Shown one piece after another: positions 1-53,457 of a DNA stretch of 53,457 bases. Positions within the stretch are counted from its first letter, which is position 1. Each line of letters opens with the position of its first letter. Source of the DNA: a virus. The DNA is taken from the IMG/VR virus record IMGVR_UViG_3300017971_000064. The stretch is one strand, 5' to 3'. Under the pieces are notes generated by a model. That model made no database searches. It was not told the DNA's origin and saw nothing but the letters and a program-made list of their open reading frames with translations. The translations under genes were made by a program, and so were the position numbers.

Positions 1-123
1 AAAATGAGATCGACGATTTAGTTGATTCTAAGTCTTAGGCTTATTGTGATTGATAGGTTATATACGGTTATAAAGGTGCGTTTTAAGACTGTGAAATATG
101 CGGTTAAGATGAGCACAGTTAAA
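1..123. repeat. Terminal direct repeat copy A, identical to 53335..53457; implies a closed circular or terminally redundant genome of 53,334 unique bp
   Basis: Compared base by base: the first 123 nt equal the last 123 nt. Bases 1..38 duplicate the 3' end (ENEIDDLVDSKS stop) of the CDS ending at 53372. Confidence 0.95.
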
Positions 124-36184: not shown

Positions 36185-37105
36185 TTAGTCGCCCCACCTA
36201 ATAAGCGATGCCGCTTTTAGTTTGGACTCGTCATCTGATAACTTTCGTTCTGCTTTTGGTGACGCGGTAGCAGCGTGCGCGTTCGACAATGTTGGTTGCG
36301 ATTGTCTTTGTTCCGATACTGGCTCTTCTTTTGGTTGTAGTAGGCTTCCTAGCTTTTTACTTGACTTCAATACCTTTTGAAGTTCTTCTTGTAAATAGGC
36401 TTCGACTTGATCGGCTGCTTCTTTTTTGTCAAGAATTCGACCACTGCTGTTATAATGTTCCTCGATGACATCGTATACAAGTTCTATGGCATCATTGGCT
36501 CTGATGAGTTCATAATCATCTCCGCCTTCTGATACGAAGTCTGTGAGTTCATTCATAAAGTTGTTAATTACTTGATTATATTTTTCTTCTTCTCTTGATT
36601 GTTTATCCGTTTCAATCTCTTCTCGAAGTTTTTTAAGTTCGTCTTCGTACTTATTCTCAAGTTCTTCTCTCATAATTTGCATCTGAATGTCTGTGGGAAG
36701 ATTCCCGTCTTCTAGTTGCATTTGAGTTAACTTGTTGTAATCCCACCCATATTTTTCAAGAGCTTTTAGAGGATTTTTTCTAAGAAGGCGATCAATAGGC
36801 TCTTCTTCGGGCTCTTTTGGCTGAGATTGTTCTTCAAGTGCCTTAAATTTAGCTTCAAGGTCTTGATATCTTTGTTCCATTTCTGCTTCTCGTGCTCTAA
36901 GTGCTTTTTCTTTTCTACTTAGGGCTGCAAATTTAGAAGCAAACTCGTCGTTTTTTTCTACTTCTTGCTGAGGCTCTTCAAGTTGTTGATTTTCCTCGGC
37001 ATTTTGACCTTCTTCAACTGCTTTTTCGTTCATTGCAGTTTCTAAGGCTTCGTTTGATACAGTATTTTCTGACGCTGCTCCGTCATTTGATGAAAACTGG
37101 TCCAT
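36185..37105 (-). CDS. Scaffolding protein (306 aa)
   Basis: Very acidic, Glu/Gln/Lys-rich coiled-coil protein between portal and capsid genes. Confidence 0.65.
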   Translation of the reverse strand: MDQFSSNDGAASENTVSNEALETAMNEKAVEEGQNAEENQQLEEPQQEVEKNDEFASKFAALSRKEKALRAREAEMEQRYQDLEAKFKALEEQSQPKEPEEEPIDRLLRKNPLKALEKYGWDYNKLTQMQLEDGNLPTDIQMQIMREELENKYEDELKKLREEIETDKQSREEEKYNQVINNFMNELTDFVSEGGDDYELIRANDAIELVYDVIEEHYNSSGRILDKKEAADQVEAYLQEELQKVLKSSKKLGSLLQPKEEPVSEQRQSQPTLSNAHAATASPKAERKLSDDESKLKAASLIRWGD

Positions 37106-39389: not shown

Positions 39390-40880
39390 TTACCAGTCGA
39401 AGTCATCGAAGCTGGCAAAATCTTTTTCTAGTTCTTGTTCAAAAGCAAAGCCGTCCGGATCTTCTTTCATTCGCTCCATGTCTTCAGCTTCTTTTGCCTC
39501 TAGTTTTTCCATATACTCGTCGGTATTTGCCTTCGGCTCGATTTCAGGACGTTCTGAGATGTAGTGTTTACATTCCCTCCAGCTGTACAAAACTGCGTCA
39601 TTGATATCGGAGTGGTAGGTATCTGAAATCTTTGGTCTATCTGGATTTCTGATCATGGAGTCTTTGTCCCAGGTGACTAGCATGCAGTCTTCGGCAAAGA
39701 GGCTTCCGGTGGGAGCTAATAGTTTTCCAGTTCGTAGATCATCATTTAGTAATTCAATAAATTCTATTTTTCGGTGCTTTTCGGCGGCTTCCATGTGCAG
39801 TCCGTGACGCTGTCTAATTTCTTCTTGTATTTTTTTCCCTAAGGCTCCGGCGTCCATTACAATTTTTACTGGCTCATATTCGGCTTTCATTCTTTTTACA
39901 ACTTTTACAAGCTCTGTAATATTTTGTTTATTTTTGACGTATTCGTCTACTATATATACTTTCTTATCCCAGGAGTTATATCCTAATACGGCTACAGCAT
40001 CACTGTCGTTGTACCCTACATCGACTCCCATAATGTAGGTCCACGTGCCTTCTTTAGGCAGTTGTTTATAGACATTTTTCTTTTTATTAAATTTAAATAC
40101 TAGAATGTCCGTGTCTTCAACCCATTTGCCGTAGGTTTCTCGAATATATGAAGGATCGTTTTTATCGATTCCCCGCATTACTCGCTCTTCTGCCAGCGTC
40201 TCCTCTAGGTCCATTCCTCTCTCTGGATCGTGCATGTGTGGATTATCAAAGGCAGTCCAGTGGTGGTTGTCCCAGTTAGGGGAGGTAGAGTATTCGTGGA
40301 AGGTTCCTGCCATTACTGGACCCGGAGTTCCTGTTAGATACAGTTCTCCTTTTAGGTCTCGCAAGGCGGGGATGATGACGTCATTTATAAGTTCTTTTAT
40401 GTAGGTTCGAAAGGATTGGGCTTCGTCGATGTAGCATTTTCTTATTTTCCAGCCTCTGTACTTTTCAATCTCCATTCGGTCTTTTGCACCGGATATATAA
40501 ATTTTGGATTTGTTAGGAAAGGTAATTATGAGCCTAGAATTGTCTGTTTTACACTCTATTTTGTACTCGTCGATCATCCTGATTAGATCGGACCAAATAA
40601 TGGCTCTAGCTGCTTGTTGAGTAATTGTTATGTATAGGAGGTTTACCGCTTCCTCTGACATGGCGGTGTCTAGCATGTCTGCTACGATTCCCAGAGTCTT
40701 GCCCGCCCTTCTTGAACAAACTGCTGTTTTAAACCTTTTATTAGAGGATCGAAAGAATTTTTGTTGCGCCGAAAATGTGAAGTCATCAAAGGAAAAAGCA
40801 GGAAGTTCTTGCCGTTCCTGCCTTTTCTTAAGCTCTTCTATAATAGCTAGTCTATTTGGTACGCTATCTTTTTTTGCCAT
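39390..40880 (-). CDS. Terminase large subunit
   Basis: ATPase motifs CSRRAGKT (Walker A-like), CYIDEAQSF (Walker B) and LTGTPG (coupling). C-terminal RNase H-like nuclease MGVDVGYNDSDAVAVLGY. Confidence 0.9.
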   Translation of the reverse strand: MAKKDSVPNRLAIIEELKKRQERQELPAFSFDDFTFSAQQKFFRSSNKRFKTAVCSRRAGKTLGIVADMLDTAMSEEAVNLLYITITQQAARAIIWSDLIRMIDEYKIECKTDNSRLIITFPNKSKIYISGAKDRMEIEKYRGWKIRKCYIDEAQSFRTYIKELINDVIIPALRDLKGELYLTGTPGPVMAGTFHEYSTSPNWDNHHWTAFDNPHMHDPERGMDLEETLAEERVMRGIDKNDPSYIRETYGKWVEDTDILVFKFNKKKNVYKQLPKEGTWTYIMGVDVGYNDSDAVAVLGYNSWDKKVYIVDEYVKNKQNITELVKVVKRMKAEYEPVKIVMDAGALGKKIQEEIRQRHGLHMEAAEKHRKIEFIELLNDDLRTGKLLAPTGSLFAEDCMLVTWDKDSMIRNPDRPKISDTYHSDINDAVLYSWRECKHYISERPEIEPKANTDEYMEKLEAKEAEDMERMKEDPDGFAFEQELEKDFASFDDFDW

Positions 40881-41182
40881 TATCTAGGTTTTTTAATCTC
40901 TGCTGCTCTAGTTTTGCTGAGTTTTTCTTTTTCTTCTTTCCTCTGAGCCTCTCTCTTTTTTTGAAGTTTTGAGTCTAGGGAGATCACAGAAATATTAGTA
41001 AGCGGTACTAAGATTCTATCGCTGTCGTTGCTAATTTCGATTACGGATAGTTCCTTTAGGATATTAATCTCTACTGGTCTTCTTCCGTTGATTTCGCTAG
41101 TAGAAAAAAAAGTTTCTACTCTTTTGTCAAAGTGTACGGCTTGGTATGTGCGCACACTTTTTACTGTTAGGTCATTAGACAT
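40880..41182 (-). CDS. Possible terminase small subunit (100 aa); start revised
   Basis: TAATG coupling to the large terminase start. ATG at 41182 is preceded by AGGAGA. Basic C-terminal tail. Function inferred from position only. Confidence 0.35.
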   Translation of the reverse strand: MSNDLTVKSVRTYQAVHFDKRVETFFSTSEINGRRPVEINILKELSVIEISNDSDRILVPLTNISVISLDSKLQKKREAQRKEEKEKLSKTRAAEIKKPR

Positions 41183-41223: not shown

Positions 41224-41931
41224 TTATCTTATTGGGTATGGGTAAAGCGGGCATCCGGACATGCTTACTGTCGCAGACCCGAATAATGTTCTTATTTGAG
41301 ACTTTATTTTTTTCTTTATAAGATCTTTAGAGCATTCAATGTTTACTACTCTGTCAGCCATTCCCTCTTCTACGGCACTTTTTCCGAACGCCCAATACTC
41401 GTCTTTTACTCTTTTTTGGTACTCTTCGATGCTTAGATCCATTCGGTTTGCGTTTCTTTTTTCCATAAATAGGATTACGCTTTTAATATATTTTAGTTGG
41501 GACTCGAGCTCTCCGGTACCGATTTGTCCTGATACTCCTCCTCGTGCTCGGTGTGCCATCATGGTTCCATTTTCTGCGACTAGCCGTTCGCCGGGAAGGG
41601 CTTGTGCGATGGCGTGAGCCATGGATGCGGCAAAGATGGAGATTGTTTTAACGTTCTTAAACATTTTAACAGCCTGAATAAATTGTTCCCCCGCGAATAT
41701 TGATCCTCCTGGAGAATCTAGTACTAGGTAAATAGTTTCGTTTTCATCTACTCTTTTATTTACTAGGATAGTCAACTTTTCTAAGGCATTGGCTACAGAT
41801 CCAGAATCTACTGCGCCTCTAAAGATAAATGTATTCTCTGGAGTTAAATATACTGTCTCTCTTTTTTGTGCTGACGTGGCTGCCGTGATTGCGGTTGCTG
41901 CTAGTAGTAGTCCTAGTAGTAATTTACTCAT
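41224..41931 (-). CDS. ClpP/S49-fold serine peptidase-like protein with N-terminal export signal (236 aa)
   Basis: MSKLLLGLLLAATAITAATSAQ looks like a Sec signal. LVLDSPGGSIFAG, IFAASMAHA (Ser) and MMAHRARGG (His) parallel the ClpP INSPGGSV / AASMG / IHQP motifs. AAGGAG RBS before ATG 41931. Confidence 0.6.
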   Translation of the reverse strand: MSKLLLGLLLAATAITAATSAQKRETVYLTPENTFIFRGAVDSGSVANALEKLTILVNKRVDENETIYLVLDSPGGSIFAGEQFIQAVKMFKNVKTISIFAASMAHAIAQALPGERLVAENGTMMAHRARGGVSGQIGTGELESQLKYIKSVILFMEKRNANRMDLSIEEYQKRVKDEYWAFGKSAVEEGMADRVVNIECSKDLIKKKIKSQIRTLFGSATVSMSGCPLYPYPIR

Positions 41932-42151
41932 TTTTGTCTCCTTCTTCCTTTTGTTCTTGCTCTTGTTTTTCCTCATATAGGTGTTTGGCAAGATCTTGCA
42001 TTTCTTTTAGTTTTACAGATTGTACCCATAACAATCCTATTAGATTCTTTTTAGATAAGCATTTCATCTTTTTTTTAAACTCAAAGAATGCTTCGTCGAA
42101 TTCTTTTACATATTGCTTTTGGTTTTCTGTTAGTTGCACTTTATTTTCCAT
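41924..42151 (-). CDS. Small charged coiled-coil protein (75 aa)
   Basis: Overlaps both neighbours by a few nt (coupled). Confidence 0.45.
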   Translation of the reverse strand: MENKVQLTENQKQYVKEFDEAFFEFKKKMKCLSKKNLIGLLWVQSVKLKEMQDLAKHLYEEKQEQEQKEEGDKNE

Positions 42152-42416
42152 ATTTGCTCCTGGTGTCTTTTATCTTATACGTTAATATTATGCTTAGGAA
42201 TCCTAGGTTTGCCAAGTAATTGAATATTAATGGGAGATCTTTTTTTGGGAGAACATATAGCAGCGTGAGCGCTTCCCCCAGGGTCCATAGTAAAATGAGC
42301 CCCCATGATATTCCCTTTGCATTTTTTTCTTTCCAGCATTTATAAGCTTGTGGCGCTCCACATATTGCAAAGCATGCGGCTCCGAGCCATCCTACGATTT
42401 CTAAACTATTACTCAC
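42141..42416 (-). CDS. SemiSWEET-like PQ-loop membrane protein (91 aa, 3 TM)
   Basis: TM1 IVGWLGAACFAICGAPQAYK carries the Pro-Gln motif, followed by K..NAKGIS, TM2 WGLILLWTLGEALTLLYVL, and TM3 LIFNYLANLGFLSIILTYKIK. Size and topology match bacterial SemiSWEETs. Confidence 0.55.
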   Translation of the reverse strand: MSNSLEIVGWLGAACFAICGAPQAYKCWKEKNAKGISWGLILLWTLGEALTLLYVLPKKDLPLIFNYLANLGFLSIILTYKIKDTRSKYGK

Positions 42417-42663
42417 CTTTTATTTCTTTTACTGGAGGTTCGTAGAACTTAGAATCTTGAAACTTCGCTAGCTCTTCCAGTACCTCGAACTGAACTCGCC
42501 TGAGGGCGAGTAGCGTATTACTGGTTCTACATTTTTTTATTCCGTTTTCGTTTACTGAGTGGTCATTGATTATTTTTTGAGATTCTTCGAATATGCTTTT
42601 AATCAGTACAGAATATTGAAGATGTAGTTTATAAACTAGTTCGTTAGCTTTAGATAACTTCAT
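42409..42663 (-). CDS. Hypothetical protein (84 aa)
   Basis: Coupled overlaps on both sides. No motif. Confidence 0.45.
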   Translation of the reverse strand: MKLSKANELVYKLHLQYSVLIKSIFEESQKIINDHSVNENGIKKCRTSNTLLALRRVQFEVLEELAKFQDSKFYEPPVKEIKGE

Positions 42664-43216
42664 CTACTATTCCGTGTTCTATGCATTCGTCTGCTGTTAG
42701 GTAAAAATTCTTTTTTCGGCAGATATCTCGCCAGTATTCTTTGTCGTGAGTAGAGAACTCTTCCATCCAGGTTGCCCACATATTTTCTTCTCTTTCCATT
42801 TGTTCTATTTCTTCTTTAACATCGCTGTGAGTTCCCCCTATGATGTAGGAGGCTTCATGATGCATAGCCCAAGCATATCTAGATATCCTTCTTTTGTCTC
42901 CTCCTGAGAGAAGTAGTACTGCTGCTGACATTATATGTCCGTATCCTTCCGTTATAATTTGACATTTAGATTTTTTCATCCGCCCTACCATTGCTAGAGC
43001 TTCGTATACGCTTCCTCCTGGACTATTTATTCTAATCGTGATTGCTGCTTTAGATTTTCTTTCCATTTCATTTAGCGCAGCATCTAGATAGTCAAAATCT
43101 CCTTGATCTATTACTCCAGTAACTTGTATAACTCTATCTCTGAGATTGATGCCCTTTTCGAAGCAGTATTCTAATCTCAGAACTTCTTTCTCAAAGTCTT
43201 TATTCTTTTCGCTCAT
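42650..43216 (-). CDS. ClpP/S49-fold serine peptidase-like protein, cytoplasmic (188 aa); start revised
   Basis: IRINSPGGSVYEA, GHIMSAAVLLL (Ser) and AMHHEASYIIGG (His). ATG at 43216 is preceded by GAGGAAG. No signal peptide. Confidence 0.6.
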   Translation of the reverse strand: MSEKNKDFEKEVLRLEYCFEKGINLRDRVIQVTGVIDQGDFDYLDAALNEMERKSKAAITIRINSPGGSVYEALAMVGRMKKSKCQIITEGYGHIMSAAVLLLSGGDKRRISRYAWAMHHEASYIIGGTHSDVKEEIEQMEREENMWATWMEEFSTHDKEYWRDICRKKNFYLTADECIEHGIVDEVI

Positions 43217-43685
43217 CTGCTTCCTCTTTTTGTTCAGAATTATAGTCATCTACATTTAAAATAAGGTAGGGGTGGTATACGCTATTATACTTAGCTGCTA
43301 ACCTCTCACTAATTCTGGTTGAGTGACTGTGTACGGATGCCGTCGCAGGATCATGCTGGAAGGCATTTAGCAAGACCTTGCCTACGCCTAGATTTCTGAA
43401 GCTGTGTTTAACATAGATATAGTGGATGGCAAAGATTCCGTCTACTTTTCCTGCGCAAATATAGCCGTAAACTTGGGAGGCGTCTTTCTCGTTGCATGCG
43501 ATGATGACATCGTTTGTCTTAAGTAGCCTTTCTAGGACCTTGTGGTGTTCAGTAAAATAAATAGTGCTTGTAATTTCTCTGGCGAAGCGAGAGTGTCGAT
43601 ATGACTTTAGCCATGAGTTGAAGATAAACGGGATGTCCTCTTCGGTTGCCCTCCGTAGGCGGATTGGTAACTTATTGTTGCTCAT
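43200..43685 (-). CDS. GNAT-family N-acetyltransferase (161 aa)
   Basis: Motif A YIYVKHSFRNLGVGKVLLNAF (R-x-x-G-x-G). Confidence 0.65.
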   Translation of the reverse strand: MSNNKLPIRLRRATEEDIPFIFNSWLKSYRHSRFAREITSTIYFTEHHKVLERLLKTNDVIIACNEKDASQVYGYICAGKVDGIFAIHYIYVKHSFRNLGVGKVLLNAFQHDPATASVHSHSTRISERLAAKYNSVYHPYLILNVDDYNSEQKEEADERKE

Positions 43686-43948: not shown

Positions 43949-44143
43949 TTACAGTATATTTTTTTTTATCCAGTTTAGCAAGCTTAATGTTCCTAGTGAA
44001 ATGCCTGCTCCTATTATTACTTGTTCTAACATTTTTAAATAAAATTTGTTTATCTGTTGTTCTTTAACTTTGGCTTTAGCCTTGGCTCGTGGGCTGGGCG
44101 TCTTAGAAACATGCGGTTTAAGCCTCTTATTACGCCGTCTCAC
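43949..44143 (-). CDS. Small protein with basic N-terminus and C-terminal TM (64 aa)
   Basis: MRRRNKRLK...AKAKAKVK, then VIIGAGISLGTLSLLNWI. Confidence 0.45.
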   Translation of the reverse strand: MRRRNKRLKPHVSKTPSPRAKAKAKVKEQQINKFYLKMLEQVIIGAGISLGTLSLLNWIKKNIL

Positions 44144-44505
44144 TCGTCCTCCGAGGTTTCTGGGGTCTGGGTAAGGCGTTGGCGCTGGAGGCTTCTCTCG
44201 GCTAATTTAAGGAGCTCCTCGTCGCTGAGGTTGGATAGGTCTTCTAGCTGGGCGGTTTCGCGCTCCTCTTTGCTGAGCTTTACGAGCGTGTCGAGATATC
44301 CCTGGACGGCTCGGGCTTCTTTTAGATCCAGGGTTATGCCTTTTTTGACCTTGTGCCGGTATTGCGCTAGCTCGGCTCCGATTATGGCTTTGGCGTCCGT
44401 GAGGAGAGCATCCAAAGTGGGTACGACGGTGACGTCGCTTTGCGAGACTTGGTTGGTCTTTTTGGGGAGCACGATTCTGCGCTTGGGTTTGGCGGGGTCT
44501 GTCAT
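44140..44505 (-). CDS. Hypothetical protein (121 aa) encoded in a GC-rich island
   Basis: ATGA couplings at both ends. The DNA is visibly much more GC-rich than the genome average. Confidence 0.5.
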   Translation of the reverse strand: MTDPAKPKRRIVLPKKTNQVSQSDVTVVPTLDALLTDAKAIIGAELAQYRHKVKKGITLDLKEARAVQGYLDTLVKLSKEERETAQLEDLSNLSDEELLKLAERSLQRQRLTQTPETSEDE

Positions 44506-44807
44506 GATAGGAGTCCTTGGTGTACTAGCCCTAAATAAAATTTATTTAATGCTTGGGTGGCGGCTGTGTCGCTAATTTGGGCTTGTGGAGTCCCGCGCAG
44601 AGCATAGGGGGGGAGGGCTGAGTTCTTAGTTTGGGATTTGGCGCCTTTTATGGACTTGGTGGGTCGAAGAGAGCTGGTGGCAGCAGAGGGGGCAGATGAC
44701 TGTGCGGGGGAAGAACAGAAAGAGGCGCAAAAGGATTGTTTGGGACTAGTATATATATAGTATTTACTGGGGGGGTGACCGGGTTTTTTAAATCTAGGAT
44801 TTTTCAC
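44502..44807 (-). CDS. Questionable ORF: Ser/Pro/Ala/Gln-rich low-complexity protein (101 aa)
   Basis: Fills the gap exactly, with GTGA and ATGA overlaps to both neighbours (supports coding). However, the sequence is low complexity and corresponds to G-tract-rich DNA on the plus strand. Confidence 0.3.
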   Translation of the reverse strand: MKNPRFKKPGHPPSKYYIYTSPKQSFCASFCSSPAQSSAPSAATSSLRPTKSIKGAKSQTKNSALPPYALRGTPQAQISDTAATQALNKFYLGLVHQGLLS

Positions 44808-45538
44808 GCTATGGCTCCCACCGGCTTGTTCATCTGCATAAGTTCTTCGGTAGTCAGCTCGTAGTCTTCGGCAGTCATGGTAGACTTGGCATACTCAATA
44901 CAATTTATTTTCAATGCCCCCACTCGCCTCCAAACCCAGGCAATGGAAAAGGAGTTGCTTGTAGGACTATTGTTTTGGACGAGGGTCGTTATGATTCTTT
45001 TGTGGACTAGTGGAGGCTGGGGAAGATCTCGGGAAGACTTGGTTAGACGGTTGACTGTATAGTAAGATCTGAGGAAGCGAACGATGTCTCGCAAGGACTT
45101 TCCCTGGCATAATTGGTGAGCGATTTCTGCGTCTATCTGCTTGTTGAGAGCATCGACTAAACAAATTTTATACTTCTTGAGAGCAGCCTTATAAGATTTC
45201 AAGGACTTGTACTCCCATTTGTAAGGTTTTCGAGGACTTAGGTGTATAAAATCGTCTGAATTTTGGTAATAATATTGAAGAGTTAGGTAAAAATTGAGTG
45301 TAGTTCTGACTTTCTCAGCTTTTTTTGTCTGAAAAGGCTTTTTTAGGTATGGGGAAGATTCTCCTCTGCCGGTCTTAAAATCGTGCCATTCTAAATCTTC
45401 AAAGCCAGATTCTTGTAATTTTTTATACCATTCCGACTTTAGTTTAAGAAAGTCACGACTATTAAATTTAGTGAAATTATCCGTCATATTTTGCGTATTA
45501 TTATTTGAATACCATGCTTCCAGATTATCTTTAGGCAT
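44804..45538 (-). CDS. HTH DNA-binding protein (about 244 aa), first gene of the leftward arm; regulator or small-terminase-like
   Basis: HTH-like AEIAHQLCQGKSLRDIVRFL. ATG at 45538 lies 8 nt downstream of a perfect TATAAT with no Shine-Dalgarno (leaderless candidate). The ORF-track TTG start at 45541 is an alternative. Confidence 0.5.
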   Translation of the reverse strand: MPKDNLEAWYSNNNTQNMTDNFTKFNSRDFLKLKSEWYKKLQESGFEDLEWHDFKTGRGESSPYLKKPFQTKKAEKVRTTLNFYLTLQYYYQNSDDFIHLSPRKPYKWEYKSLKSYKAALKKYKICLVDALNKQIDAEIAHQLCQGKSLRDIVRFLRSYYTVNRLTKSSRDLPQPPLVHKRIITTLVQNNSPTSNSFSIAWVWRRVGALKINCIEYAKSTMTAEDYELTTEELMQMNKPVGAIA

Positions 45539-45546
45539 CAATGAAT

Positions 45547-45752: not shown

Positions 45753-45983
45753 ATGAGAATTGTTAGAGTTAATAAGACTTATGAAGTGGTTAATGAAATA
45801 GGTCAAGTTCTTAAAAAGTTTGTGTCTTTTGACAGTGCTAGAACATTTGTATTGGGAGAAGAAAATGCAGATTTTGAAAAAGGTTCTGTTGATTTGTTTG
45901 GGACTTATGATGTTGCACCTGCAAGCCGAAGATATCGTAGGAACCGGGCAAAGTATAGAAAGATTGAAACTACAGATAAGTAA
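45753..45983 (+). CDS. Hypothetical protein (76 aa) whose 3' 119 nt overlap the SLT gene in another frame
   Basis: Strong TAAGGAG RBS. The basic C-terminal tail (RRYRRNRAKYRK) is encoded in the overlap. Confidence 0.45.
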   Translation: MRIVRVNKTYEVVNEIGQVLKKFVSFDSARTFVLGEENADFEKGSVDLFGTYDVAPASRRYRRNRAKYRKIETTDK

Positions 45984-46368
45984 GAACAATCCTAGATTAG
46001 GTACTGATTATATAGATAAATTAGCTAATGTTTTTTATAATGTTGGTCAGAAGTATAATATTCCTGCTAATATTTTGGCTGCTATTGCTAGTGTAGAATC
46101 TAATTATAAGTTAGGTGCTATTAATGGTAGAAGTGGGGATTTTGGTATCATGCAAATAAACTTGCGGGCGCATCGTAAATTTGATAAGGAAAAGTTATTG
46201 ACTGATTTGCAGTACAGTGTTGAAGCTGGAGCTCAAGTTTTTTTATGGTTTTTTAAACGATATACGTTAGAAACGGCTATAAAAAGATACAATTGCGGTA
46301 CAAAAAGAACTTGCATTAGGTGGTCTCCTGTGATAAAATATTTAGATAAAATAAGGAGAGCATGGTGA
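45865..46368 (+). CDS. Secreted soluble lytic transglycosylase (SLT domain)
   Basis: Signal peptide MQILKKVLLICLGLMMLHLQA. Catalytic region ILAAIASVESNYKLGAINGRSGDFGIMQIN. GGGAGAAG RBS before ATG 45865. Confidence 0.8.
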   Translation: MQILKKVLLICLGLMMLHLQAEDIVGTGQSIERLKLQISKNNPRLGTDYIDKLANVFYNVGQKYNIPANILAAIASVESNYKLGAINGRSGDFGIMQINLRAHRKFDKEKLLTDLQYSVEAGAQVFLWFFKRYTLETAIKRYNCGTKRTCIRWSPVIKYLDKIRRAW

Positions 46369-46568
46369 AGGGATTTATTTCGTTAATTGCAATTTATATG
46401 TTGTTTATAGCTTTTACAACTATGCGCGGAGATTTTGAAGTAGAAAAAGAATCGGTATCGTCTAGGAATAGAGAGCTATGTATTGGCAAGATTCGCACTT
46501 TTAGTTTAAACAGAGAAGATGCTAATTCGGTTTGTGAAACCATTGAAGTTCTTAAGGAAGGTAAGTAA
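46362..46568 (+). CDS. Small N-terminally anchored membrane protein (68 aa)
   Basis: TM FISLIAIYMLFIAFTT. AAGGAGAG RBS. Overlaps the SLT stop. Confidence 0.55.
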   Translation: MVKGFISLIAIYMLFIAFTTMRGDFEVEKESVSSRNRELCIGKIRTFSLNREDANSVCETIEVLKEGK

Positions 46569-46569
46569 T

Positions 46570-47121
46570 ATGAAAATGATCATGGTTGTTATTTTATTTG
46601 TAGCCGCTTCTTGCGGTCCTCGTGGAAGCACCGTTGATATAACTAGTCCTGCTTATGACGATTCTGAAGTTACTAAGAGATTAGACGACTTGGAGCGAAG
46701 AGTTAAATTATTAGAACAGGTTGAGGCTGCCCAAGATGTTTTAATTTCGGCTTTGACTCAGAATGTTGAGGAAAACGAAGATAATATTACTTATTTGCTA
46801 GATATTGCGAGTAATTTGCAGGATCAGCTAAATTCGGACTATCAAAGCTTACAGCAAAGTTTGTCTGATATATCGGACAGTGTAACTCTGTTACAAACGG
46901 CTACTGAAAAAGGCATTGCTGAGCTGATTGATCCTTGTGGAGACGGTGCAGGATACGATGAGGTAATCATGTTGCTTAATGACGGGTCCTATGTTGCGTA
47001 TTTTGAGACTGGTTCTAAACGATTTCTATCTGTGTTGGAGCAGAGTGTGAATTACCAGACTACGGACGCACAGAGATGTCGGTTTAAGATTAATGCGCTT
47101 AATGAATTAGAAGAGCTTTAA
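46570..47121 (+). CDS. Coiled-coil lipoprotein (183 aa)
   Basis: MKMIMVVILFVAASC lipobox. Long heptad region. Start moved to the ATG at 46570, which has AAGGAAGG upstream. Confidence 0.6.
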   Translation: MKMIMVVILFVAASCGPRGSTVDITSPAYDDSEVTKRLDDLERRVKLLEQVEAAQDVLISALTQNVEENEDNITYLLDIASNLQDQLNSDYQSLQQSLSDISDSVTLLQTATEKGIAELIDPCGDGAGYDEVIMLLNDGSYVAYFETGSKRFLSVLEQSVNYQTTDAQRCRFKINALNELEEL

Positions 47122-53105: not shown

Positions 53106-53372
53106 ATGAGTTCGGTTAAGGAAAGTAGTATAGTGCAATTAATTACTGAGTTAGTGGACGTAGCTTCTTCTGTGAAAACATCTCTTAGTACTAGAGATTT
53201 TTCTGGTATTAAAGGTCAGATTGAGCGTTGGCAGACTTTAGGAAATCGGTTGGAGACTGAGCTGGAGACTCAAAGGGATATTGAGGACTATAGGAAGAAG
53301 ATTAGGAAGCTTAAGAAAGAAATTGTTAAGCTTGAAAATGAGATCGACGATTTAGTTGATTCTAAGTCTTAG
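53106..53372 (+). CDS. Coiled-coil protein (88 aa) whose 3' end lies in the terminal repeat
   Basis: ATG at 53106 with GGAGGG upstream. Heptad-rich C-terminus. The last 38 nt are duplicated at 1..38. Confidence 0.55.
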   Translation: MSSVKESSIVQLITELVDVASSVKTSLSTRDFSGIKGQIERWQTLGNRLETELETQRDIEDYRKKIRKLKKEIVKLENEIDDLVDSKS

Positions 53373-53457
53373 GCTTATTGTGATTGATAGGTTATATACG
53401 GTTATAAAGGTGCGTTTTAAGACTGTGAAATATGCGGTTAAGATGAGCACAGTTAAA
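53335..53457. repeat. Terminal direct repeat copy B (identical to 1..123)
   Basis: See the first feature. Confidence 0.95.

Follow-up and report, generated by a model that had tools for sequence, protein, structure and literature searches.

Why would a tailed phage place two serine peptidases of the ClpP family, one of them with the features of an exported protein, just upstream of its terminase genes? The question is raised by the IMG/VR virus record IMGVR_UViG_3300017971_000064, which was analysed over its full 53,457 nucleotides (the window). Reading along the minus strand from position 43685 to 40880, the window encodes a GNAT acetyltransferase, a cytoplasmic ClpP-like peptidase (CYT), a protein of 84 amino acids (aa), a PQ-loop protein, a 75-aa protein (p75), a ClpP-family peptidase with a predicted export signal (EXP) and a 100-aa protein, after which the gene for the large terminase (TerL) follows (Table 1). 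A preliminary description of this DNA, made without database searches, suggested an envelope-remodelling, host-takeover or anti-defence unit rather than a head-maturation unit. The answer that we favour, and consider moderately probable, is that these genes make up a conserved accessory block bordering the packaging and head genes on their upstream side, with EXP as an exported periplasmic peptidase directed against the envelope.

EXP is a ClpP-family protein with a predicted export signal

The AlphaFold2 models of both peptidases, a check suggested in the preliminary description, have the ClpP fold, with predicted local distance difference test (pLDDT) scores of 93.7 for EXP and 94.3 for CYT. 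The top Foldseek matches of both, for EXP those in the PDB, are canonical ClpPs (E values 1e-15 to 1e-17, template modelling (TM) scores of about 0.8 on the target, root-mean-square deviations (rmsd) of about 2 Å). EXP matches PF00574 at 2.2e-18 (67.2 bits, Pfam cut-off 20.2) and solved ClpP sequences at about 1e-12. The motifs that had been read from the two proteins (xSPGGS, AASMA or MSAAV, MAHRA or MHHEA) are all present, and the pair is as distantly related as had been stated, BLASTP aligning 13 residues around SPGGS (E = 0.023).

Conservation of the catalytic residues is nearly complete. Among 408 distinct members of the EXP family Ser103 is kept in 406 and His127 in all 408, and both are found in every member that is ungapped there. 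Glu178, which aligns with the catalytic Asp of ClpP, is found in 391. Judging from these residues EXP is probably an active ClpP-family peptidase.

The N-terminus of EXP, MSKLLLGLLLAATAITAATSA followed by QK, consists of a hydrophobic segment (residues 1–21) with Lys3, a hydrophobic core at residues 4–18 and small residues at positions -3 and -1 of a predicted cleavage site between TSA and QK. The Sec-type signal of the preliminary description was thus upheld, with its end most likely at Ala21 and not at Gln22. Signal peptides were called by a heuristic of hydropathy and small -3/-1 residues, without a dedicated predictor. The heuristic was passed by 104 of 120 EXP relatives, as against none of 120 CYT relatives; no hydrophobic N-terminus was seen among the latter, in agreement with the earlier statement that the second ClpP-like protein has no signal. 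A hydrophobic core like that of a signal peptide or anchor occurs in 379 of the 395 EXP members (out of the 408) with an adequate N-terminus, and it is the grammar of the signal peptide that is conserved, not the sequence itself. The pre-core region is at least 60 residues long in 63 members with a hydrophobic core, and the long forms that we inspected have an N-terminal anchor followed by a Pro/Ser/Thr-rich linker. A few members have lipobox-like N-termini (seen by eye), and many have variable charged C-terminal tails.

In the EXP model the N-terminal helix is detached and of low confidence (pLDDT about 65). The ClpP core begins about 10 residues past the predicted cleavage site, which leaves no axial loops and no helix A, and the handle helix and the Gly-rich strand are retained (monomer model). 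An extra C-terminal beta unit of roughly 35 residues bears Cys200 and Cys227, both kept in 397 of the 408 members, and 103 of 113 EXP relatives have exactly two cysteines in the mature part. These two cysteines probably form a disulfide; a pair of this kind is typical of periplasmic proteins.

ClpP is the textbook cytoplasmic, ATPase-driven protease. Shared with the canonical enzyme (MEROPS S14, PF00574) are the fold, the homologous Ser and His, the GG strand and the handle helix, whereas EXP differs in its Sec signal, its Glu in place of Asp, its C-terminal beta extension with the Cys pair, and in being without the axial loops and helix A that canonical ClpP uses for gating and for docking of the AAA+ unfoldase. 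Furthermore, neither ATP nor AAA+ partners would be available where EXP works. Against the canonical ClpP equivalog model TIGR00493 the scores are 51–52 bits (EXP 51) with a cut-off of 308.6. The closest analogy in localisation is found in SppA (S49) and NfeD-type proteins of the ClpP/crotonase fold, whose catalytic domain works at the membrane or periplasmic side without ATP. These proteins use a Ser-Lys dyad, whereas EXP keeps Ser-His-Glu, with His instead of Lys, and is phage-encoded and soluble or singly anchored. It has no Peptidase_S49 match, and the SppA domain model gives 20–25 bits with a cut-off of 155.

Distribution of the EXP family

A search of 5.8 billion proteins gave 190 EXP relatives with 40–53% identity, all from metagenomes or metagenome-assembled genomes (MAGs) and many on contigs of 50–60 kb. 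By profile search of 1.84 billion representatives the family comprises about 808 clusters at 50% identity (E <= 1e-30). Only one locus came from 185,579 species-representative genomes, whereas metagenomes gave 74 loci and IMG/VR more than 300 matches. A prophage or cellular origin of EXP was considered and rejected, the sole species-genome match coming from a phage-like contig of 88 kb that had been binned as a Synechococcus MAG. No counterpart of EXP was found in 50,697 deposited phage records, where the best tblastn matches are to prohead proteases at about 28% identity, and the long EXP subfamily is likewise practically without relatives there. The top Foldseek match in the viral models is an uncultured-phage protein, probably a family member. 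Our literature search, incomplete in its coverage, found neither an exported ClpP-like protease of phages nor a phage SemiSWEET described.

A protein of the giant virus Fadolivirus (BFVD A0A7D3V576, annotated as Clp protease/TepA) aligns with the EXP model across 216 columns (TM score 0.81, rmsd 1.9), better than any ClpP in the PDB. An exported-type ClpP relative may therefore exist in giant viruses.

The protease slot upstream of the terminase genes

We compared 74 metagenome and 80 IMG/VR loci anchored on EXP, with their neighbours clustered, and 77 IMG/VR loci anchored on CYT (individual loci carry L numbers). The loci span up to 10 kb on each side, and co-occurrence counts are not corrected for phylogeny. 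Pattern-based scans miss relatives: the CYT scan recovered about half of the known CYT-bearing contigs, namely 6 of 11 in a comparison by hand, and none of 7 CYT-less contigs.

The genes are syntenic in related phages, a point on which the preliminary description depended. In group A, with genomes of about 55 kb that include the window, the order is p121, small gene, GNAT, CYT (in part of the members), p75-like, EXP, small gene, TerL, small gene, portal, scaffold and major capsid protein (MCP), and it recurs in many non-redundant loci. In group B, with genomes of about 40 kb and sample names that suggest a marine origin, EXP is located directly upstream of TerL, portal, a 383-aa protein and MCP; neither CYT nor GNAT was detected there within the flanks examined. 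TerL follows EXP within three genes in 45 of 68 informative loci, and CYT is found upstream of EXP in 21 of 56. The long-form EXP subfamily (241 IMG/VR matches, contigs up to 170 kb) has mostly replication and nucleotide-metabolism genes as neighbours. One recurrent order is CYT, a Cas4-like nuclease, a small gene, EXP, a small gene, a head-maturation protease of PHROG 1028, a 280-aa protein and a major head protein of PHROG 752. This T4-like lineage keeps CYT and EXP beside a prohead protease of its own, which argues against the pair being simply a unit of head maturation.

In every examined relative that has this gene order, the place ahead of the small gene and TerL is taken by an exported serine protease, and three kinds were found. 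The first is the EXP type. The second is a ClpP-like protein of 213–216 aa with a signal peptide and without the Cys pair (Pfam CLP_protease, 2.8e-12). The third is a Trypsin_2 protease of 231–252 aa with an N-terminal membrane anchor, whose nearest solved relatives are HhoA, DegP and HtrA. In 41 of the CYT-anchored loci the first large downstream open reading frame (ORF) is ClpP-like with a hydrophobic N-terminus; it is a Trypsin_2/HtrA-like protein with a transmembrane anchor in six by motif, and in L280 and L281 by Pfam. We dropped an earlier finding that EXP is absent from many CYT-bearing relatives, the threshold of the hidden Markov model having missed divergent exported ClpP-like and HtrA-like proteases in the slot. 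L001, the sole relative from a single-protein TerL scan of IMG/VR (77% TerL identity), has a fragment of a trypsin-type protease in this place.

Proteases of the DegS/HtrA family are periplasmic. The HtrA/DegP/DegS-like proteins stand in for EXP in the slot of the closest relatives, where the order is GNAT, CYT, PQ-loop, p75, the slot protease, candidate small terminase and TerL, and they are anchored as DegS is. They differ in having a trypsin-like fold unrelated to ClpP and no PDZ domain, whereas the window phage has the ClpP type. The refilling of the slot by an unrelated fold that keeps an export or anchor signal is our strongest argument that the function under selection is proteolysis on the periplasmic side, and this function seems to be a generic one. 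Since an HtrA/DegS-like enzyme can replace EXP, the substrate is probably an unfolded or exposed polypeptide and not something that needs a ClpP barrel.

We propose that EXP would be made in the cytoplasm from the leftward gene block shared with the packaging genes, exported by Sec to the periplasm of a Gram-negative host and freed of its signal peptide. The mature protein, stabilised by its disulfide, would act in the periplasm as an ungated, ATP-independent peptidase and would cleave unfolded or exposed envelope and periplasmic polypeptides. By this the host envelope would be disabled or remodelled, which might aid release, block re-adsorption or superinfection, or remove an obstacle located in the envelope.

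The same gene orders could be read as placing a prohead protease, with the hydrophobic N-terminus of EXP serving to tether or target the protein to a membrane where heads are assembled, and not to export it. Beside TerL, portal, scaffold and MCP no protease is as constant as EXP, and in the marine subgroup and about half of group A no other ClpP-like gene was detected within the flanks. EXP also scores against prohead-protease profiles, and the variable charged C-terminal tails of many members would fit such a role. We regard this reading as highly improbable, as the n-region is positively charged and leads to an AXA-like site, some members have Pro/Ser/Thr linkers or lipoboxes as in periplasmic proteins, and a conserved Cys pair is unusual for a cytoplasmic protein. 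Furthermore, DegS/HtrA-like anchored proteases replace EXP in the slot, one lineage has EXP together with a dedicated prohead protease, and elsewhere EXP is found among replication genes.

The preliminary description had counted seven tightly coupled minus-strand genes in 41224–43685. The coupling was borne out: neighbours among the first six genes overlap by 8–17 nt, and AGGAG precedes several of the starts. The count was not; six genes lie wholly inside, and a seventh is reached only by adding the downstream 100/124-aa gene (40880–41182/41254). An envelope-remodelling or host-takeover role gains from the exported ClpP-fold peptidase in a conserved family and from its HtrA/DegS-like replacement in the slot. 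That the seven genes act as one unit is not established. Roughly half of the EXP-bearing gene orders closest to the window lack CYT, the marine subgroup has neither GNAT nor CYT within the flanks examined, and the PQ-loop gene is syntenic in the nearest clade only. Nothing points specifically to an anti-defence role, and a PADLOC scan gave no match.

In distant relatives further enzymes lie near EXP, among them other envelope-associated proteases. A 252-aa subtilase (Peptidase_S8) with an N-terminal transmembrane anchor lies two genes upstream of EXP in L002 (8544–9302), and a full FtsH homolog (FtsH_ext, AAA and Peptidase_M41) directly downstream of EXP in L198 (6808–8607). In L085 (7739–9442) an anchored long-form EXP is located between an 86-aa protein with a C-terminal transmembrane segment and a signal-less phage lysozyme, the start of which overlaps the EXP stop, a layout like that of a lysis cassette. 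A link of EXP to lysis cassettes was set aside as the main explanation, this lysozyme being the only one among 118 immediate neighbours and the window having candidate lysis genes of its own.

CYT and the question of head maturation

The ClpP-like peptidase CYT, which is cytoplasmic, often accompanies EXP but is dispensable, and the same holds for the GNAT protein. It matches PF00574 at 2.4e-23 (83.4 bits, cut-off 20.2). The likely start is the ATG at 43216 behind GAGGAAG, which gives 188 aa, rather than 43249, and the model has a single N-terminal helix and no hairpin. Ser97 and His120 are invariant in 38 relatives, among which the third triad position is N, D or E; the window protein has Asn. 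In total 197 relatives were found, on contigs up to 120 kb. In L272 (1292–2542), and also in L276, L284 and L286, CYT is directly followed by a gene for a 416-aa beta-ketoacyl-ACP synthase (in L272 Pfam ketoacyl-synt 1.3e-39, C-terminal domain 9.7e-37), an auxiliary gene of fatty-acid synthesis in the same accessory region.

The best phage-profile matches of CYT are PHROG 94 (3.6e-27) and NCBIfam Clp_rel_HeadMat (NF045542; 83 bits, cut-off 120), both of head-maturation proteases, and tblastn reaches annotated capsid maturation proteases of mycobacteriophages. The module might thus be a mixed one, with CYT as the head-maturation (scaffold-removing) protease displaced upstream of the terminase and only EXP and the PQ-loop protein as envelope accessories. 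In line with this, CYT is transcribed in the same direction as TerL and lies four genes upstream of it (EXP lies two). No other protease was found among the scanned window proteins, a set that leaves out many smaller ORFs, and none lies between portal and MCP. We regard a mixed module as possible but rather doubtful. The 83 bits of CYT are below the NCBIfam cut-off, and in collinear relatives with the same portal, scaffold and MCP genes CYT was not detected. It persists in the T4-like lineage, which has a prohead protease of its own, and its third triad residue, Asn in the window protein, varies within the family. Head systems of the P22/T7 type have no protease, and the separate scaffold and the capsid protein without delta domain make the window resemble these.

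The comparison with head-maturation proteases holds for both peptidases. These proteases are the best-scoring phage family for CYT and EXP, and likewise have short ClpP cores without ATPase-docking elements and genes near the head genes. Neither peptidase reaches the NF045542 cut-off (83 bits for CYT, 59.1 for EXP), so that the outcome named in the preliminary description as a refutation, CYT as an ordinary prohead protease and EXP as a known scaffold-protease fusion, was not borne out. Their genes are not fused to a scaffold, EXP is predicted to be exported, and neither gene lies in the portal–MCP slot, which speaks against head maturation. In agreement with the earlier statement that this slot holds only a scaffold, the sole protein encoded there is an acidic coiled-coil protein of 306 aa without family match, consistent with a scaffold.

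The PQ-loop protein

The 91-aa protein agrees with its first description as a three-transmembrane protein of SemiSWEET size with Pro-Gln in the first segment. Its hydrophobic segments are at residues 4–21, 39–57 and 61–79, with Pro22-Gln23 at the first, and it matches PF04193 at 8.7e-13 (48.3 bits, cut-off 22). The similarity to PQ-loop proteins, which had been singled out for checking, extends to five solved SemiSWEETs (E values from 6.8e-9 to 1.3e-5; 9kax 6.8e-9, 4qnc 3.4e-7). Scores for the NCBIfam model SemiSWEET_2 (1.5e-13, 50.7 bits) and for MtN3_slv (17 bits) are below their cut-offs of 80 and 23.7, and cystinosin is matched weakly. The protein is most likely an inner-membrane small-molecule carrier of the SemiSWEET fold.

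With bacterial SemiSWEETs such as that of Leptospira biflexa (4QNC) it shares size, three transmembrane segments and the PQ motif in the first of these, and it differs in being phage-encoded, in scoring below the SemiSWEET_2 cut-off and in the register of the Trp/Asn pair. In the HMMER alignment the sugar-binding Trp48 and Asn64 of 4QNC fall on Thr51 and Tyr67. The invariants of the phage family (W10, W44, G47-E48, N66-Y67 and N70) are nearby, Trp44 and Asn66 being out of register with the 4QNC pair.

The sole relative in the 50,697 deposited phage records is at 57015–57248 of LR756502.1 (56% identity), a 642-kb uncultured phage; other close relatives are on unrelated phage-like contigs, beside IMPDH/GGACT or DnaB/primase genes. 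About a dozen distinct genomes among the EXP-bearing loci have the gene, and its position varies between them. The window, L010 and eight loci with an HtrA-type protease (at least four distinct genomes) share the order GNAT, CYT, PQ-loop, p75, exported protease, small gene and TerL. With a fixed position in the nearest clade of the window and varied ones elsewhere, the PQ-loop gene is thus linked to the slot in that clade and is not a general partner. Our earlier view from the EXP-anchored loci, that the adjacency is limited to two loci, was dropped after the CYT-anchored scan showed the nearest-clade synteny beside HtrA-type proteases. In the ENA copy of the genome (L008, 2558–2833) the GTG-initiated PQ-loop gene is uncalled and appears as a gap in the called genes at 2568–2826, so small membrane genes are probably under-counted in viromes.

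The presence of a carrier between two peptidases invites a salvage reading, in which EXP breaks down envelope and periplasmic proteins of the host, the products enter the cytoplasm through the PQ-loop carrier and CYT completes the degradation of the peptides there to feed phage synthesis, much like a lysosome-like recycling module in nutrient-poor waters. Cytoplasmic and exported proteases do lie near each other in unrelated architectures (group A, the T4-like set, L002 and L007), the protease type in the slot is interchangeable, and in the clade of the window the PQ-loop gene is flanked by CYT and the exported protease, whichever protease this is. PQ-loop relatives include lysosomal amino-acid exporters, which fits the cystinosin matches. 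The neighbours in other lineages are metabolic and nucleotide genes and the FabF-like synthase, and the contig names place the EXP family in aquatic and sediment metagenomes. We nevertheless think salvage unlikely. The PQ-loop gene is absent from most EXP-bearing loci, its closest solved relatives are sugar-carrying SemiSWEETs and not amino-acid carriers, and a ClpP-like barrel that is ungated and without unfoldase handles only peptides and unfolded chains; furthermore, no peptide-uptake genes were seen and CYT is dispensable. It appears equally doubtful that EXP, the PQ-loop carrier and CYT form one hitherto unrecognised host-takeover module of uncultured aquatic phages, which would span the inner membrane and either demolish the envelope from the periplasm or recycle its proteins in a lysosome-like manner.

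Other neighbours and genome setting

A GNAT protein heads the cluster, as previously stated (Acetyltransf_1 25.5 bits, cut-off 20.7). It also scores 27 bits against Acetyltransf_7 (cut-off 27), matches a PHROG acetyltransferase at 2.7e-9 and has the acetyl-CoA motif RNLGVGK; no close solved relative was found. A GNAT ortholog lies upstream of the proteases in 27 of 56 EXP-anchored and 52 of 77 CYT-anchored loci. The 84-aa protein has no match in Pfam, PHROG, NCBIfam or PADLOC, and phmmer found its gene in L008 only, where EXP is 100% identical to that of the window, among the first 82 loci, a set without the CYT-anchored ones. Like GNAT, p75 is a conserved neighbour of the protease slot. It has the conserved motif LSK(K/N)xLI and no family match, and throughout group A homologous or analogous proteins of 58–104 aa are encoded at position -1 of EXP. 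The 100-aa protein, also without family match, is a candidate small terminase by its position. The stop of its gene overlaps the TerL start, and in group A a small gene repeatedly follows EXP at position +1 (30 non-redundant loci fall into a single BLAST cluster). Direct homologs of the 100-aa protein are found in L001, L010, L016, L058 and CYT-anchored loci.

The window is a complete phage genome of 53,334 bp. Its ends overlap exactly over 123 bp, which makes the contig complete and either circularly closed or terminally redundant. The source is an uncultured SU10-like tailed phage. A plus-strand arm encodes a family A DNA polymerase, a DUF5906/VapE-type primase-helicase and a PDDEXK nuclease, and a long minus-strand block encodes TerL, a P22/SU10-type portal, the acidic coiled-coil scaffold, an SU10-type capsid protein and an SU10 adaptor. 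No DNA match was found in INPHARED, the source of the 50,697 deposited phage records, and the TerL relatives there are eight weak matches of 23–26% identity, mostly Pelagibacter podophages. TerL is about 830 aa long in two related phages, L001 (996–3512) and L028 (10985–13471), as against 496 in the window; in L001 an intein-like insert with the LAGLIDADG-type motif LAGLIDTDGSV splits the Walker A region, and the window TerL is without insert.

In the candidate lysis cassette the SLT transglycosylase carries the signal peptide MQILKKVLLICLGLMMLHLQA followed by ED, and the 200-aa protein has a lipobox-like N-terminus, a coiled coil and a weak match to Rz-like spanins (E 0.001). The strong AGGAG sites, the lipobox and AXA signals, the candidate disulfide and the SLT enzyme together suggest a Gram-negative host that uses Shine-Dalgarno sequences. 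No tRNA genes were found in the window. Promoter and terminator scans gave counts not above the shuffled expectation, and we therefore make no claim about transcription units. A putative GTG-initiated ORF of 101 aa at 44502–44807 on the minus strand, rich in Ser, Pro and Ala and either a gene or non-coding, fills a 300-nt space between the conserved genes 44140–44505 and 44804–45541.

Table 1. Positions of the features discussed, in window coordinates
Feature	Position	Strand	Basis
GNAT acetyltransferase, 161 aa	43200-43685	-	Pfam, PHROG, motif
CYT, cytoplasmic ClpP-like serine peptidase, 188 aa	42650-43216	-	PF00574
CYT Ser97 codon	42926-42928	-	
CYT His120 codon	42857-42859	-	
84-aa unknown protein	42409-42663	-	no family match
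PQ-loop/SemiSWEET-like three-transmembrane protein, 91 aa, GTG start	42141-42416	-	PF04193
PQ-loop protein Pro22-Gln23 codons	42348-42353	-	
75-aa soluble coiled-coil protein (p75)	41924-42151	-	no family match
EXP, exported (predicted) ClpP-family serine peptidase, 235 aa	41224-41931	-	PF00574
Predicted EXP Sec signal peptide, residues 1-21	41869-41931	-	heuristic
EXP Ser103 codon	41623-41625	-	
EXP His127 codon	41551-41553	-	
EXP Glu178 codon	41398-41400	-	
EXP Cys200 codon	41332-41334	-	
EXP Cys227 codon	41251-41253	-	
100-aa candidate small terminase, ATG 41182 behind AGGAG	40880-41182	-	position only
Large terminase TerL, 496 aa	39390-40880	-	Pfam Terminase_3, Terminase_6N; PHROG 2 at 1.2e-40
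306-aa acidic coiled-coil protein, portal-capsid slot	36185-37105	-	no family match
Candidate lysis cassette	45865-47121	+	SLT transglycosylase, 68-aa transmembrane protein, 200-aa weakly Rz-like lipoprotein
68-aa transmembrane protein of candidate lysis cassette	46362-46568	+	
Overlapping ends of the window	1-123 and 53335-53457		exact overlap

Strength and meaning of an envelope role

Several points weigh against an exported EXP that acts on the envelope. Its export is predicted from heuristics and the Cys pair. In three lineages EXP lies at the upstream edge of the head and packaging genes, which could mean a morphogenetic role. Both ClpP-like proteins have their best profile scores with head-maturation proteases of phages. 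The immediate neighbours of the broader EXP family are mostly DNA-metabolism genes (one lysozyme in 118) and give no consistent clue to a target. The window has a separate and plausible lysis cassette, which leaves no gap in lysis for EXP to fill.

In routine annotation the ClpP-like proteins of phages receive the names "ATP-dependent Clp protease" or "head maturation protease". EXP represents a large phage-restricted family of the ClpP type that, by the logic of its sequence, would act outside the cytoplasm. The finding of some exported serine protease in the terminase-adjacent slot, wherever this was examined, points to a selected periplasmic proteolytic step in widespread uncultured phages. 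If this is true, EXP would be a new kind of phage envelope effector, and its recognition would correct a systematic mis-annotation in viromes. Its export, Ser103, the Cys pair and the PQ-loop partner would then offer a testable entry point to how these phages handle the Gram-negative envelope.

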